DNA from: Neodothiora populina
Taxonomy: Eukaryota
Reading direction: 5' to 3'
Length of the DNA: 64,000 nt
Assembly (NCBI RefSeq): GCF_041146345.1
Contig: NW_027191411.1
Span: 310,001 to 374,000 of the forward strand
This document shows, one piece after another, positions 50,252 through 60,553 of the stretch (positions are counted from its first letter, which is position 1; each line of letters opens with the position of its first letter). The position numbers and the translations under genes were made by a program. Under the pieces are notes generated by a model. The model was not told where the DNA came from. It saw only the letters and a program-made list of their open reading frames with translations, and made no database searches.

Positions 50252-52558
50252 TCATCGATGGTGACCAAAGTCCGCATCGACAACCTTCTTTTCCTTCCGT
50301 GGCTTGACCACGAATTCAGTCATTAGTGAGATATGATCTGAGGGATGATAGATATGGGGGAAGCCGGGCACGCGTGACAGGTATTGCTTGTCAATATCAC
50401 CGAGTAGTCCGACCACCGATAAGGTGTTGGTCGAGTACCAGATGTAGTCGAGAACGCCGGCGAAGCTGGTCGTGTAATTTGTGAACTCGAGCTCGTTAAT
50501 GTGAGCGTAACTGGACTTTAAGCTGAAGGGATGAGCTACACCTTCTTTGGTGAAGTTTCCGTATTTGCGGCCAACAAGGTCATCGTGTAGACTTGAAAGC
50601 GAACCGTGAGTCAAGAGATCGTACACCCCGGAATCGGGGGTGGAGTTGAAATCTCCGCATATGATCATTGGGATTTCAGATCCCGAGCTGTATTTCTGCG
50701 ATGGAGCGGGCTGCTTCGTAGGAATGTCTCCATTCACATCATCTCCATTGGCGTATTTGAAGGGTTCCTTGTCCTTGAGAGGAGGATGATTGACCCAGGT
50801 GTCGCTCAATTGCTTCAGAGTTTCGAGAAGGATGGCGACTTGTACAACCTTGACGTCAGGGAAAGCAGGGTTCCAGAAGACGTGGATATTGACAACGATG
50901 TGCCTGGCACCGGTCGCACGGTTCTCCAAAAAGGTGACTGTGGCGATGTCGTCTCTGGTCATGACACGGTTGAAGATGTCGTGTTCGCCCTTCATGTCAG
51001 GTCTGTTGATGGCCTTGCGGCCGAATTCGACGACGGCCTTGTCCAGCAAAATGTACTTTGCGTTCTTGTAGAAAGTGGCACAGCCATCGACGAATCGCGA
51101 ATCCTTCTCGCCCATGGTCTGCGCTCTTGACTTTTGCCAGAACACGCCCTTGTAGTCGCTCCTCGCCAGCTCAGGTCGGAAGAAGTTGTCGAAGCTCTCC
51201 AGGTCGATCTCTTGCAAGCACAGGATGTCGGCGTCGCGTCCTTGAAGTTCGTTAAGGATTTGCTCTCTGCGGTTCTCCCAGGACAAAGCTCTTGTGGGTG
51301 CATGGCCGTAGAGGGCAAGGGTACAGGCTTTGTCGCACAGAATGTTGTAGCTCATGACTCGGAGGCGGTCGTCTTCGTTGACCGTCGATGAATCATCCTC
51401 GAGGGAGATCCAATCGCGCTCATTTGGAGGGGCAGGATCTTTGTCACACAGTCAGCCTTTACATCACCACACGTAAATTGAGATTCGGCGAGACATACCT
51501 GGAGCGGTCTCTCGTAGCTGGCGAACCAGCTCTGAGGGTCCCGACTCTGCCACGATGGCTTTGATGTCATCGTTCAGAGGATTGCCTTCGATGGCGAGTG
51601 TGTCAAGCTGGTAGAGATAGCCAAGCTCTGCCGGAAGGTGGTCGAGATGGTTGTCAACCAGCAGGAGAGTCTTGAGGTTCGTTAGCATTCCGATCTCAGC
51701 AGGTAGCTCAGTCAGGTTGTTTTGTGAGAGATCAAGGAAGGTCAGATTTCGTAGCAGGCCAATCTCCGCAGGTATCCACTGCAATTTGTTCTGGTTCAGG
51801 TAGAGTTTCTCCAGGAAGCCATATTTGAACAGATTACACGAGAGACCTTTCAGGCCTTGGCCGCTGAAGTCGATGGCGTCGAATTTGCCCTTGGGCTTTG
51901 GGGGCAGCTGAATCTTGCGCCATTGGTCGGGATCCTCCTTTTCCTTGTTCGCTGTTTGTCCGGAGGCCAGAGCCTGCCTACTGATGACATGTGCGTTCCT
52001 CGCGTAGTGATGTGGTTGGTTGGCGGCCCTTGACTCTTGCGCCAAGGACAACTGCTGTGCCCAGAACTCGCTGGTGGGCTTGCTCAGGGCGCTGTGGTTG
52101 CTCGAGGGCGTCCCCGACTGCAGATGGCTAGGCGTGAAATGCGGAGTGGAAGAGGAGAGAGTGCCCGAGGAGATGTTGTGAGTGTGATTCCCAAAGGCAG
52201 AGGCGTGTGGGTTGTGAGGAGGGTGGTCGTGGTGTTGTTGGTTCTGATGGTGGTTCGGATGCTGATGGCCGTGCTGTCCAAACTGCTTTGCTATGTTCAT
52301 CTGGTTGATGTACTGTTGGTGGCTTTGCCCGTTAAGCAGAGCATGTCGAGATTGATTGTGGTTCTGACCAAACATGGCTGCAAACGCGGGAGACTGAGTG
52401 CCAGGCGAACGGTTCGGAGAGGGAGTGTCGGTCGAGGGGAAGCCTATGCGGGGATTGTTGACAGGCGAGGCGTGTCGAGTGTGGATCTGTCGATTCTGCG
52501 TCTGCGGATTGTAGAAATATTGACCGGCTCCCTGGAACCGGAAGGCACCATCGGCCAT
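50252..52558 (-). CDS. CCR4: Ccr4 mRNA deadenylase (LRR + EEP nuclease), 748 aa
   Basis: Exons 52558-51499 and 51438-50252. Q/H-rich N-terminus and LRRs ([11 protein letters not shown]...); EEP motifs SYNILC, CLQEID, CGDFNS, LDYIWY and PSDH. Confidence 0.97.
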
Positions 52559-54420: not shown

Positions 54421-55606
54421 ATGCCGCCGCCGCCGCGACCTCGACACCTCCCCCTCCCTATCGCTGGCTCCGTGACCAATACGCCACGACTACCTCCCAT
54501 CACCACCGCGCAGCGTCGCCAAAAATCAACCTCCTCGACAGATCCCGAACCCCCAGCAGCGGCACTCTCTCCGCGCTGGCTATCGGATCTCAAGTCCCGT
54601 GTGGGGAAATGCATAACTTTCGGTCTGTCATCGTCTCAAGTCGGCGTCGCAGGGAAAGTAATGGGCGAGATCGCGCGGGACTGGAGGGATCTGGTCGCGG
54701 AACGGGAAGGGTTCCTGACCGGGCCGCAGAGGAGGGGGTTGTATAGACATACGGTTGTTTGGGGCGAGATGGATAGTATGGTGAGTCCTCTTGATTCGCG
54801 CACGTGAAGATGATGGTTGTTGCTCGATAATGTGTTGCTTCTCCTTCCCTCTGTGGGAGATGAGAAAAGAAGGCTGATAGTAGGCGAAACGAAAAGGGTG
54901 AGTACATCGTCTTCTACCCTCTGCTGTGCTAGCTACTGTATTCTCCTTCGGCACTATCTATGCACTACGTCCAAAACTATAGAAAGAACTGAAATAGAGA
55001 GAGGTAGGTCACGTCAATAATGTCACATACAACCGCTATGCCGAATCCGCACGTGTGGAGTGGGCCAGGAAATATGCCACATACATCGACCCCGCTCATC
55101 GAGTGGAATGGGGTCAACTGTGTACGAACAAGGGAGACGGGCTCATAATGAAGAGCATCAAGACGGATTTCAAATTTGTCAGTCAACACGTCTTTCTTCT
55201 CAAACATCTTTTCTTTTGCTGACCGGATGGATTTGTTGATTGGCATAAGCCCATGACATGTCCAGATCACATCACGGTGTATCACAAACTGGCCCAGGAG
55301 CCGGAGGCGGGATCGAGCTCGTTTGTGCTCGACGTGCTTATATTATCCGAGCTGCACCAGCGGCCCGCCGCGAGACTTAGCGAAGATCTTGTCCTATATG
55401 ACTACACGCAGGGCAAGAAAGCTCCGCTTAGACCATTCATGCTCGACGCCTTCAAGCAGACTTGGAGACTGCAGGAGGAGGCCAGAAAGGCCAGCAGTGA
55501 GAAAGTGAAACAGCTGCTCCACACGGTCAGGCAGTTGGAACTGGACAGCTGGGATAGAGCGGACGCCAAAGAGGACTTTGGCAGTGCAGCGGCATCGGGC
55601 CAATGA
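54421..55606 (+). CDS. Hot-dog-fold thioesterase (4HBT-like), probably mitochondrial, ~295 aa
   Basis: Exons 54421-54780, 54897 (1 nt, proposed), 55008-55177 and 55250-55606, giving WGEMDSMGHVNNVTYNRYAESAR...FKFPMTCPDHITVYHKL. The N-terminus is Arg/Pro-rich and presequence-like. Confidence 0.85.
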
Positions 55607-56963
55607 GAGGTGCACATCGTCATGTACAACAAGAAGAACTTTGAGCTATAGCATGTCGTGATCAACGGGTCTGACATATAAGGGCAGTTCGCCGTTTTTT
55701 CTTTGGATTCTTGAGTATCCGTGGCTACTGGCTGTCTCTTGACTAAAGCAGCTCGATGCACTAAGACACGCAAGCTGAGCCCGAAGTCCTCATGTACACG
55801 TACACTGTGACTGAACAGACCAACAATGTACAGTATTTCCCTGCTTGCAACATACAATCTGCGGTGTGGCACATGGACTGGTTCTTGTCATTTAAGAAGA
55901 GAGGGGAAAAAGCCTTGATGAACATATGTGGATCCCCAATGCGGACGGATAGTCTTATCGGATGTCAGACCCCGCATTGGAGTCTTCTGTTCTACTGCAC
56001 GCTGTCTTATCTTACCTCAGTAGATGTGATAGACGATGAAACACAGCCGCTTCAGAACGGCCAATGATACAACCGTGTGGATAGATTCGTGTGCTAGCAA
56101 GATGCAGTATGAGCAGCAGGGACCGCGTGATGTTGCACTCCGAGGGTTCTTCTTGTTATGCATGTGCAGTGTGCAAACGCGCATGGTGACACGCAAGTTG
56201 CATATACAAGCAAGTATGCCTCGTGATACGGCATGGCTGCGCGAGGCAAGAAAAGGCAAGGCAAGGCAAGCATAACAACAACAACAACGACAACGTCAAC
56301 GACAGCGATCGCAGCCCAGCATCAAATGCGAAGGTTTGCCGACGGGACAGCACGGCTATATTTGCTCGCTCTGCAGCCTCCAATCTCGAAAAAGCCCGAG
56401 GTGCAGGGGAGAAAGAGAAAGATCGTCGTTGCTTTTCGCCAACCCCATGAAAGCAAGATCGACCTTTTGTGGATCACATAGAGTAGAGGCAAGAGGGAGA
56501 AAATTGATGCAGCTCCCACCCCCCCCCATCGAGTCATAGATCGTAGAGAGAGAGGAGAAAAAGGGCAGCAGTGCATGCGTGAATGCAAGCTTTGACCGAA
56601 GCTTCGGATAGAGTTAGCTGCCTTAGCACACCTTACCCAGAGAAGCAGTCGGCCACAGAGAAGCCGGGATTCTAACAGAAGCACCGAACGGTAGAAGGGC
56701 CCTGTGGCCCTGTGGCTCTTCCCTCAGCCGCGGTTCTTTGGCATGCGAAAACTTGGTTAGAAGGAAGTTTAACCCGGGGTTGGAAGCGGCAGAAGGAACA
56801 CCATGACTGTATGGGTTTTTTTAATGAAAGGCGGTGACCTTGGTCGATGTGCCGTTCTGCATATTAATTAGTTTTGGTTGTCAGTGCTCTTCCCGTAACT
56901 TGTACCTGAGCGAAGAAAGATTCGATGGTCGAGCGTCAGTGATAGGTACTTGGGTCTACTGCC

Positions 56964-56994: not shown

Positions 56995-57484
56995 CGGTCA
57001 TCGTCAAACCACCGTCGGGCGACTATAGTACAGTGCAGCATAAACCTTTTCGGCTGTTGTGCAAGAGAGAGAATCTGTGCTCCAGAATCTCCACCGTTCT
57101 GTCTTGTTTCTGCGCGAGAGTGGTAAAAGACTCGACGTAAAAAGAGCAAAAACAGTAATTAGCAAGACATGACATCGCAGCCACAGATGCCAAGACTTTC
57201 CTAGTGTGTGCATAATTGCATGAAGGCGTTTCTTGTTTGATCTCCCTATATTTCCCCTCCGAAGGCATGAGAAAGACTAGCATTTGACACCAATAAGAAT
57301 TAATCCCACACTTAACCACCACCACCACCATCACGAGCTGCTGCTGCCACAGCGCCCCTCCCCCCTCCCATCACGATCATTATCGCATAGACGCCGACTT
57401 CCTTTTTCGAAATTGATAGAAACCACCCATCGCGCCTCGTCCCCGCCAGGCTCGCGAGGATTCTGACGAGCTGGCGGCGCGCTG

Positions 57485-60400
57485 ATGCCGCCTAAGGCCA
57501 AACGCAACAACGCAAATCAGCACGACAAACGTCATGAGAGCGGCCTCGCTGCTCCTGGAAAGCGCATCACCAAGCAGAAGTCAAACCCGAGTCTTAATGG
57601 TCAGGCAAACGGAAAGGCGGGCTCCGGTGTGCCTCCCCCGCCGCTTCCGTCGACTGGATTAAACCAAGGTCTGGTTTTCCCGAGACCGGCGAATCACACC
57701 AATTCGACCGAGACCATCGCTTCCGCTTCCGCTGCTGCTGCTGCTGCGAAAGGAGAAGAAAGGACTGGCTGCTTGGCTGGAGGAGTAGCAGGGGCAGGAC
57801 TAGGATTAGGAGGAGCAGCAGGAGCAGGAGGTGGATCAGGAGGACTAGGGATTGGTGGAGGAGCTGGGGTGGCCGGGTATGAAGAAAAGGGTCGCGCGTC
57901 TCCCTCTGTCTCTGTAGAGGACGACGCATCGACCATGACATCGAGTCAGGCAGACGAGCCCGCGACTACCAAAGTCATTCGTCGCGTGTCCGAAGGCCCT
58001 GCCTACAAGACGTCGATCGTCAGTTCCGCCAGCAGCAGTCTTGCCCTGGCAGCGACAATTCTCACCTCGTGCCCGCTCCGCGACGCCATCGCCATCCTCA
58101 TTCTTCTGCTCTCTCTGCCGCCTACTCTCATCATCACCATTCACACTCTTTTCGCATCTCTTACGTTTGTCCCTCCGGCCACTGCTAACCTCTCATGGAA
58201 CACCTTTACCTCTTTCCCGCCAATAGGAGACTGGTTCCATGCCACCGCGGCCGGGGGACCGTCTATTTTCACCATGTTGACCGCCGACGCGGTCATGACT
58301 CTCACCTACTTGTGCAGTCCGTTATTCGCCCAGAGCGTCTATCTGGATTTATGTCAGGCAGTCATCGCCATTTCTCTCAGTGGAGCCACCGCCGGCAAGG
58401 GTGGCCCTGCTAACAGTGTGGCCATTTGTAGCGTCATTGTCTTCCTGACCCATTTCTTACGATATAACAAGATTCACCTAGCAGGCTTCGACTATCTCCG
58501 CTCTGTTTTGCATAATCTGGGTACGCCCATCACTTGGACTCCGACCCCGGTTTCCGCTCACTCGGTCTCTTCTCCGCCCATTTATGGCTGGCCTCGCACC
58601 TTGCTTGGCTGTCATATTCTGGCTCAAGGCCTTCTCACTCTTCTGCGTCGGACACTGCAGTCGTATTCAAGCCACCAACGCGCGAATGCGATCAAGAAAC
58701 AAGACCCCGAAGCAGCATCACTGGCAGAAGGCAACAGGGCGTCGATCAGCGCTGGAAGCGGCGAGCAAGACCCTGTGGGCAGTCTGAGTACAGATGGAAG
58801 ACCCCCTGGGCCGTCGCCCGCGTTACGAGACGGAGAGAAGCGGCTATCGAACAACAAGCGAAAGCGGAAGCAGGCCAACCAAGTCAGGAGCCAGCAGCCG
58901 CTTTGGGCTGCTATCGGAAGCACAAAAGTCACATTCTTGAAGGAGATGGAACAGAAACAGGCCTCGAGGGATGCCATCGAGGCCGAAACAGCAAACAGCA
59001 ATCACGCGGACGGGCTGAGAGAGGAGTCCGACACGGATCGTTTCTGGATAACTGAGATTGGAGCAACCGAGATTCTCTTCCGCGCAGACTTGTCTGCGTG
59101 GTCGAGCAGAGACGCATCGACCAAGACGGAAACCGGAACACTTATCAGCGCGGGAATCGACAAGACCAAGCCTTTCTTTGTTCGCATCAACGGTGCAGAC
59201 TGGGGCTCGACGAGGATCAGCGGGGTGGCCAAGGGTGATGCGGATGTCAAGACGGCAACAAAGATCTGGACGGGCGAGATTTACGGACTCACTCCGCTGA
59301 CCAAGTACAGTTGCGAGTTTGTGGGTCTCTCTGATTCCCAAGTCATCTGCAGCACCAACGTCGTCACTCTGCCCGCGCCGAGCGCTGAACAAGGTAGGCT
59401 AAACATATCAAATGTTCTACAGCGCTTGCAGCTGACAGTTGGAGCCTCTGTCGTTCCACCACCTCCACAGCATCAGGCGCTTCGCCCGCTTTCGCCAGTC
59501 TCGACGCTGAAGCAATCCATTGCTGCCGCAGAGATGAAGCGCGACGAGGCTCGCAACAAGCTAAAAAGAACTCGCAAGGATCACAAGAACGCCGCATCTG
59601 CCATACGCAAGGAAATCGAACAGCTCCACAGCAAAGTAGCTTCCGCCGGAGGACAAGACGAACGCCAGCGCCAGCGCATCATGCAGTTGACGCAGCATCT
59701 GCGCCAAGCGAACGATGCCACTGCCGCGCTCAAGGATGAAACCGACGCGCTGGGCGAGATCCCCGAGGACGAGCTTACCGAGTACGACGAGAAGAAGCGC
59801 GGTTGGCAGGCAGTCCGTGACAAGAGAGCAGCTGCCCTCGCGGAGATGGAAGCTGCCAAGGCCGAAGCGCAGAAGGAACTCGGACAGCTGAGCTCGGAGC
59901 TCGCGTCTCTGGCACAGAAGAAGGAACGTCTCCTGGCACGCGGTGGAAAGCTCAACGAGCAACTCGAACGTCTGACTGTGCAGAAGAACGCCGACACCTC
60001 GGCTCGACAGAAGCACGACCACGACCGCGCAGCGCGCTTACAGGACTACCATCGCCGCGAGAACGAGATGCTCTACTGGATCGCCAAATCTAACCAGGAA
60101 GCCGAGGAACAGAACATCAATGCGAACCATGCTTTCCAGCAGATGGAGTATGTCAACACGATTGTCGCCCAGGCTCAGTCGACCATGTCTGGACCGCCGA
60201 CTCCCGAAGGCGATCTGCCAGGCACCAACGGACTTCAAGGCAGGGCGAATACCTTCGACTTTCCCATGTTCCGCACGTTTCCTGCAACTTCTATCCCGAA
60301 TCATGGCATCAACAATCAACATCAGTTCCGGGGCGGACGAGGACGCAGCAGCTCGATGCTATCGGGTTACAGCGGCTTCACCGACGACCTGGACGTGATG

Positions 60401-60553
60401 CCTGGCATGGAGGAGAACAAGAGCGAGGGTAGTTCTGGCAGCAGCGGTGCCAGCCAGGGTGACCTCATGAGTCCGCGACCTCTGGTTAGCAAAGCGATGA
60501 GCCCGATCGGACCTCCTTCTAGTGGAGTCGGAGCGAGCCCCAAGCGTCGATAG
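57485..60553 (+). CDS. acrB: AcrB-like ubiquitination network signalling protein (TM segments, FN3-like region, coiled coil)
   Basis: N-terminus RHESGLAAPGKRITKQKS; CPLRDAIAILILLLSLPP; QVRSQQPLWAAI.STKV; FFVRINGADW; C-terminal coiled coil. Probable in-frame intron at 59394-59444. Confidence 0.8.
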   Translation: MPPKAKRNNANQHDKRHESGLAAPGKRITKQKSNPSLNGQANGKAGSGVPPPPLPSTGLNQGLVFPRPANHTNSTETIASASAAAAAAKGEERTGCLAGGVAGAGLGLGGAAGAGGGSGGLGIGGGAGVAGYEEKGRASPSVSVEDDASTMTSSQADEPATTKVIRRVSEGPAYKTSIVSSASSSLALAATILTSCPLRDAIAILILLLSLPPTLIITIHTLFASLTFVPPATANLSWNTFTSFPPIGDWFHATAAGGPSIFTMLTADAVMTLTYLCSPLFAQSVYLDLCQAVIAISLSGATAGKGGPANSVAICSVIVFLTHFLRYNKIHLAGFDYLRSVLHNLGTPITWTPTPVSAHSVSSPPIYGWPRTLLGCHILAQGLLTLLRRTLQSYSSHQRANAIKKQDPEAASLAEGNRASISAGSGEQDPVGSLSTDGRPPGPSPALRDGEKRLSNNKRKRKQANQVRSQQPLWAAIGSTKVTFLKEMEQKQASRDAIEAETANSNHADGLREESDTDRFWITEIGATEILFRADLSAWSSRDASTKTETGTLISAGIDKTKPFFVRINGADWGSTRISGVAKGDADVKTATKIWTGEIYGLTPLTKYSCEFVGLSDSQVICSTNVVTLPAPSAEQGRLNISNVLQRLQLTVGASVVPPPPQHQALRPLSPVSTLKQSIAAAEMKRDEARNKLKRTRKDHKNAASAIRKEIEQLHSKVASAGGQDERQRQRIMQLTQHLRQANDATAALKDETDALGEIPEDELTEYDEKKRGWQAVRDKRAAALAEMEAAKAEAQKELGQLSSELASLAQKKERLLARGGKLNEQLERLTVQKNADTSARQKHDHDRAARLQDYHRRENEMLYWIAKSNQEAEEQNINANHAFQQMEYVNTIVAQAQSTMSGPPTPEGDLPGTNGLQGRANTFDFPMFRTFPATSIPNHGINNQHQFRGGRGRSSSMLSGYSGFTDDLDVMPGMEENKSEGSSGSSGASQGDLMSPRPLVSKAMSPIGPPSSGVGASPKRR

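Follow-up and report, generated by a model that had tools for sequence, protein, structure and literature searches.

The window analysed in this study is a stretch of 64,000 nucleotides from the fungus Neodothiora populina (RefSeq assembly GCF_041146345.1, contig NW_027191411.1, positions 310,001 to 374,000 of the forward strand), and all coordinates below refer to it. It contains on its forward strand a gene for a predicted thioesterase, the parts of which are listed here together with the evidence for each:

54421..54780 (+): exon 1, coding part, 120 codons; an open reading frame that ends W-G-E-M-D-S-M in phase 0 and is 100% identical to the N-terminal part of the public protein P0001
54781..54896 (+): intron A, 116 nt, GTGAGT...AAG; sequence, and an orthologous intron position in relatives
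54873..54878 (+): predicted branch site of intron A, GCTGAT, branch A at 54877; consensus, 18 nt before the intron end
54897..54897 (+): very likely one-base exon, G, the first base of the Gly codon in DSMGHVNN; orthologues, the join in contig L032 and the intermediate L059
54898..55007 (+): intron B, 110 nt, GTGAGT...TAG, phase 1; sequence
54988..54993 (+): predicted branch site of intron B, ACTGAA, weak; consensus, 14 nt ahead of the end of the intron
54995..54997 (+): competing TAG acceptor, adopted in the public gene model, where it inserts R-E-V; sequence of P0001
55001..55003 (+): competing GAG acceptor, which with the donor at 54781 adds one Val in frame; frame analysis
55008..55177 (+): exon 3, starting GT CAC, first half of 4HBT_2; PF13279 positions 11-56, E 3.3e-05
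55178..55249 (+): intron C, 72 nt, GTCAGT...AAG; sequence, with P0001 joining F-K-F to P-M-T here
55250..55606 (+): exon 4 with the stop codon, second half of 4HBT_2; open reading frame, PF13279 positions 58-122, E 8.7e-08

Exon 3 corresponds to the first half of the Pfam profile PF13279 (4HBT_2) and exon 4 to the second; exon 4 scores 33.1 bits against a cut-off of 25.5 and exon 3 alone 24.8 bits, and by this profile the predicted product is a 295-residue thioesterase of the hotdog fold. Its orthologue P0002 matches the bacterial structure 2FUJ, whose intron-free gene encodes DSMGHVNN at the same place. Compared with hotdog-fold thioesterases at large, the protein has the same family match and the same motif as 2FUJ but differs in about 110 extra N-terminal residues ahead of the domain and in scoring far under the cut-off of TIGR00051 (YbgC/FadM), the 68.7 bits of which are not reached by P0001 (no match), P0002 (24.3 bits) or P0055 (19.7 bits). 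We take the Asp of the motif to be catalytic, as in 4HBT/YbgC-type thioesterases. In the N-terminus encoded at 54421-54530, Pro, Arg, Thr and Ser are abundant and the first 40 positions are free of acidic residues, a composition that, by a rule of thumb, may reflect a mitochondrial targeting sequence. A search of the species' own genome found the gene to be single-copy, with no second copy for comparison. Its neighbours are an open reading frame at 51464-52558 (-) with a His/Gln-rich N-terminus followed by leucine-rich repeats, which we assume to be Ccr4-like, and one of 1,028 codons at 57467-60553 (+) with hydrophobic stretches and a coiled-coil-like end.

The DSMGHVNN motif is interrupted at its center. 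Exon 1 ends GAT AGT ATG at 54780, directly before a GTGAGT donor, and the exon after the TAG that ends at 55007 resumes with GT CAC GTC AAT, one base short of a Gly codon. In between, an AAG acceptor ends at 54896 and a second GTGAGT donor begins at 54898, leaving one base, G54897. The original prediction read this G as an exon of a single nucleotide, and all of its coordinates, from the two donors, GCTGAT and the AAG to G54897, the end of the TAG and the GT CAC GTC AAT beyond, agree with the sequence. As it also held, excision of 54781-54896 and 54898-55007 yields DSMGHVNN, and a single intron from 54781 to 55007 shifts the frame. The G is required both for the reading frame and for the conserved protein sequence, and each of the two introns has its own donor, branch motif and acceptor. 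Other readings also keep the frame: a single intron could run from 54781 to TAG54997 or GAG55003, in either case putting extra residues into the motif, or intron A could end at AAG54869 or AAG54872, giving a middle exon of 28 or 25 nt. The original prediction had weighed the first of these and overlooked the other three.

In 20,000 shuffles of the intervening sequence of the window, the full AG-G-GTRAG arose in 0.5% and the bare AGGGT in 16%, and hence the window taken alone is suggestive and not decisive. Introns A and B are each about twice the median length of their orthologues, the branch motif of intron B is weak, and folding of the introns gave z-scores of 0.18 and 0.53, i.e., no special structure. 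Intron B ends AG-GTAG-GT-CAC (55001-55009), with tandem acceptors 4 nt apart that are also donor-like, an arrangement likewise seen at the locus L084.

A pattern for an exon starting at HVNN retrieved 109 metagenome loci, 101 of them with the upstream Met anchor, and these together with the window form 61 clusters at 90% exon identity. At one position the pattern admitted no residue other than N, K or T, which leaves Eurotiomycetes, Sordariomycetes and many Leotiomycetes under-represented; the eight loci lacking the upstream anchor stay outside the counts (L077, L084 and L093 show AGGGT, and the other five extend at most 63 bases upstream). Across the anchored loci the spacer between acceptor and donor changes in step with the shortfall of bases in the next exon. 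Where that exon is one base short, AG-G-GT stands at the orthologous place in 47 of 49 external loci (30/32 clusters); where it is two bases short, namely in Aureobasidium-like loci, AG-GG-GT is found in all eight (3/3 clusters); and where it is complete, AGGGT occurs in only one of 30 loci (1/19 clusters). Fisher's test of spacer against missing bases gives a p of 1.2e-10, a figure that overstates independence because the clusters have common ancestry and are not phylogenetically independent. AGGGT is present in 31 clusters, the window included, against 2.4 expected from shuffling, which is far beyond chance. The conservation of AG-G-GT among orthologues, to which the original prediction had pointed as a check, is thus borne out.

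The orthologous introns are normal short fungal introns, with medians of 62 nt for A and 55 nt for B, and in the one-base clusters a branch motif could be recognized in 31/31 A and 30/31 B introns; its distance to the intron end is at least 8 nt in the orthologous introns. With the exception of L059 and L085, all 55 intron-bearing clusters have intron A in the same position, and these two exceptions are also the clusters that need one base and lack AGGGT. L059 is a transcript-like contig; at L085 only 25 bases lie between the Met and His codons, with the start of intron A fused to the end of intron B when set against L044, and this locus is probably a deletion, pseudogene or misassembly, with deletion or misassembly favored. 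At L042:936-1056 (-) and L060 the one-base G starts an Ala or Val codon in place of Gly; therefore, the one-base exon outlives a change of the residue. Fourteen loci have no intron at the motif. On long genomic contigs, the intron-free lineages number three (L049/L050/L057/L106, L038/L051/L052 and the L019 group); L106 and L038 are also without the downstream intron, and the L019 group retains it.

A search for RNA of the window's own species listed no source, and its one read run spans 55578-55900, downstream of the junction, neither outcome speaking for or against the exon. Two contigs of relatives, L032 and L059, are judged to be RNA-derived from their missing introns and not from library records. 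Over 1,327 aligned bases L032 shows 3 mismatches to the genomic locus L053. Of the 138 bases that separate the Met codon from the next exon there, it is missing 137 and keeps a single G, which constitutes the mature join; two further introns are also gone from it. It retains the first, upstream intron and uses, downstream, a GAG acceptor 10 nt before the CAG, on account of which we regard it as an unproductive form. As a side observation, the last exon of the L053 lineage is interrupted by an additional intron. L059, the N-terminal part of which is 97-98% identical to Tuber proteins, is without three introns of its relative L108, intron A among them, and keeps the 55-nt intron B, which is identical to that of L108 at 46 of 55 bases. 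As intron A is removed and intron B retained, the internal acceptor before the G is in use in this lineage. The public model P0137 of Tuber indicum makes the same join as L059 and then reads on into intron B. Based on the structure of the orthologues and these two contigs, we conclude that G54897 is very likely a real, constitutive one-base exon, for which we would put the probability at roughly 0.93.

The public protein of Neodothiora populina, P0001, presents a different picture: it uses TAG54997 and reads DSM-REV-GHVNN. A single intron from 54781 ending there, or at GAG55003 with one extra Val, would leave the internal AG-G-GT unused in this species. Both versions are in frame, the first has the public model behind it, and GAG acceptors are usable, given that L032 uses one. 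However, TAG54997 lies only 4 nt past the branch hexamer as against a minimum of 8 nt in orthologous introns, and here the original prediction was right that this acceptor has no well-spaced branch site. Such an intron also leaves unexplained a full internal set of branch motif, acceptor, G and donor at the orthologous place. The public homologues are no kinder to it. Of 136 that were fetched, 102 have both anchors of the motif by a regular-expression search; 85 of these have an 8-residue link (78 with Gly, 63 exactly DSMGHVNN), and the insertions in the link of the other 17 are all different, each being a single case, with R-E-V confined to P0001 among all 136 proteins. A single intron of this kind is accordingly very improbable as the main form, although a product ending at TAG54997 or GAG55003 may arise at a minor level by skipping. 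As for the 34 homologues without both anchors, three are normal variants falling outside the regular expression and 31 are broken or without the stretch, and an insertion, gap or break affects the motif stretch in 48 of the 136 homologues, for which the same micro-exons are the likely cause. The models from Aureobasidium that are broken here comprise P0058, P0063, P0064, P0068, P0123 and P0124.

An assembly error or recent deletion is a different kind of objection, under which the true sequence has an extra G after the TAG at 55007 and one phase-0 intron, or else the gene is broken. A single phase-0 intron followed by a whole codon does exist in 19 clusters of relatives, and there are no independent reads at the site; yet the internal AAG-G-GTGAGT and its branch motif match 30 external clusters that are likewise one base short, and the remaining reading frame is intact, which renders this objection highly improbable. 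Hardly credible is a longer middle exon, with intron A ending at AAG54869 or AAG54872 and 9 or 8 residues added by exons of 28 or 25 nt: these are both in frame and share the second donor, but no branch motif lies upstream of either acceptor, both exons would swallow GCTGAT, and the spacing of the motif would be broken. Finally, a non-canonical cut might supply the G by keeping the first G of the donor or the final G of the acceptor, or a nested twin intron might be its source. The mature join of L032 cannot by itself tell which G is kept, and in that respect agrees with such a cut. Nevertheless, TG...AG or GT...TA would then have to serve as intron ends; twin introns of the donor- or acceptor-split type, as treated in the relevant passages of PMC5587772, remove a G and supply none; and both the use of the internal acceptor in L059 and a spacer of two bases where two are needed speak against it, making the chance practically negligible.

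Returning to the one-base exon, we advance the following mechanism for its splicing. Two ordinary spliceosomal introns would flank G54897, and their excision would join ATG, G and GT CAC into DSMGHVNN. Because each intron has its own donor, branch motif and acceptor, introns A and B could be recognized independently. In recursive splicing with a zero-length exon, the donor follows directly on the acceptor (AG/GT) and nothing remains of the exon; here one needed base stands between them. Intron definition applies in filamentous ascomycetes according to a statement in PMC5587772, from which it would follow that each intron is recognized singly, the exon itself needing no recognition, and the two would then be cut one after the other. 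The original prediction went further in taking the one-base exon to imply ordered, twin-intron-like splicing. The exon has stood up, by way of the orthologues, L032 and L059, but the order does not follow from it: the splice signals of both introns are intact, neither intron cutting into those of the other, and a retained base separates them. The pair therefore falls outside the stwintron as defined in the passages of PMC5587772, in which an internal intron breaks up the donor, branch site or acceptor of an external one, and either order of excision fits and is permitted by the sequence. The intermediate foreseen by the original prediction lacks only 54898-55007; the sole intermediate seen, L059 from a truffle relative, is of the opposite order, with A out and B kept, and on this one contig excision of intron A first is the likelier route.

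In evolutionary terms, the distribution of these layouts was followed on a quick tree that is unrooted and weak in its backbone, omits the short clusters L011, L013, L038, L090, L092, L094, L098 and L101, and places L009 beside another long branch. The one-base state appears beside several Pleosporales genera, Lepidopterella, Aulographum, Diplodia and Dothideomycetes sp. NU457, as well as in a group with Tuber and Morchella (support 100). Intron A alone is found in three separate groups, respectively with Epicoccum (99), with Cladosporium, Cercospora and Hortaea (96), and with Leotiomycetes (85). As far as a quick unrooted tree allows, the filamentous ascomycetes sampled here probably inherited the one-base layout from their common ancestor, losing intron B on several occasions. 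Genomic loci with intron B alone were absent from the 61 clusters, in which A-only lineages are common (19 clusters); the idea of an intron shift through alternative loss of A or B finds no support, there being no such B-only locus. Only the Aureobasidium group shows the two-base state (support 99); in it, L080 is 98% identical to an A. pullulans protein, and the second intron is in phase 2, one base further downstream than in every other lineage. This likely represents a one-base slide of intron B in Aureobasidium. The loci showing the two-base state are L039:783-900 (+), L080:936-1191 (-), L043, L048, L064, L067, L095 and L100.

Two other features recur around the exon. Of the 30 external one-base clusters, 23 have one more intron, 9 nt upstream, resulting in the order intron, 9 nt, intron, 1 nt, intron; being inserted after W-G-E-M, it makes a 9-nt exon coding for D-S-M (e.g., L003, L008, L053 and L108), which the window does not have. 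The acceptor of intron A is AAG in 28/31 one-base clusters with the window (27/30 external) and in 12 of the 17 A-only clusters examined, often with a GCTAAG or GCTAAA branch motif, as compared with 2/30 for intron B, 0/26 for the upstream intron and 14/42 for the downstream intron. AAG is apparently a conserved weak 3' end of intron A, and shared ancestry may be the cause of its conservation. More tentatively, and with the odds rather against it, one might imagine an ancient exon, common to truffles and Dothideomycetes and often following a 9-nt exon, that has been retained to serve as a splicing checkpoint for the active-site motif, with the weak AAG setting the order or rate of excision and the slide in Aureobasidium providing a clean case of a change from one to two bases.

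These observations correct the gene model at an active-site motif, where the R-E-V of the public protein looks false. They also provide a natural series within one gene, namely: (i) no intron; (ii) intron A only; (iii) a one-base exon; (iv) a two-base exon; with or without a preceding 9-nt exon. Such a series opens a way to study the treatment of the very shortest exons by the spliceosome, as well as the sliding of introns by a single base.

A literature search, with supplements and most subscription journals outside its reach, found no work on a micro-exon of this thioesterase gene. The passages of PMC7138796 that came up concern nested donors and not one-nucleotide exons. In the basidiomycete Coprinopsis cinerea, long-read annotation yielded 13 one-base and 57 two-base exons in one genome (PMC12230235); this is a genome-wide count, the text of which, in the parts consulted, has no thioesterase or cross-species comparison, and an orthologue could be among the one-nucleotide exons of its supplementary list. 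In plants, the 1-nt exon of APC11 was proved by base substitution (Guo and Liu 2015, PMC4674806), and that of VPS55 is conserved across land plants (PMC8831610). Going by the passages on them, these resemble the exon described here in being constitutive, placed between GT-AG introns, long-lived, lost with the introns in some lineages and missed by annotation. They differ in that APC11 was established by substitution, in contrast to sequence comparison and the contigs of relatives here, and in that the passages on APC11 and VPS55 describe loss and intron retention and no change from one to two bases.

Among fungi, the alternatively spliced [D1,2]/[A2,3] stwintrons and their 1-nt intron shift (Fekete et al. 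2017, PMC5587772) have much in common with the present case as far as the consulted text goes: two short adjacent introns are cut consecutively in a filamentous ascomycete, at positions one base apart, and the shifted base is a G. There, however, the introns overlap by one G and one splits the signal of the other, whereas here one exonic G lies between complete introns; a stwintron intermediate for the Aureobasidium shift was not noticed in an unsystematic look at the loci. Another close parallel is the one-nucleotide exon of the CYP621A P450 genes of Fusarium (Nelson and Syed 2026, PMC12940212). By the portions of that account at hand, both are found in a fungal nuclear gene with AG-G-GT, the G belonging to the Gly codon of a conserved motif, and both have support from orthologues and mostly wrong gene models (nearly all of them in Fusarium). 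The Fusarium exon supplies the middle base of its codon in one genus and has transcript reads from exon-bearing species, whereas that of the thioesterase supplies the first base across Dothideomycetes and truffle relatives, with transcript-like contigs coming from relatives only, and adds variation between zero, one and two bases along with one intermediate. One-base exons are thus already known in plants and fungi, and no new kind of splicing is involved here; what this gene adds to them is wide conservation, a likely one-base slide of an intron, a conserved AAG acceptor, an intermediate that has been caught and widespread trouble for gene models.
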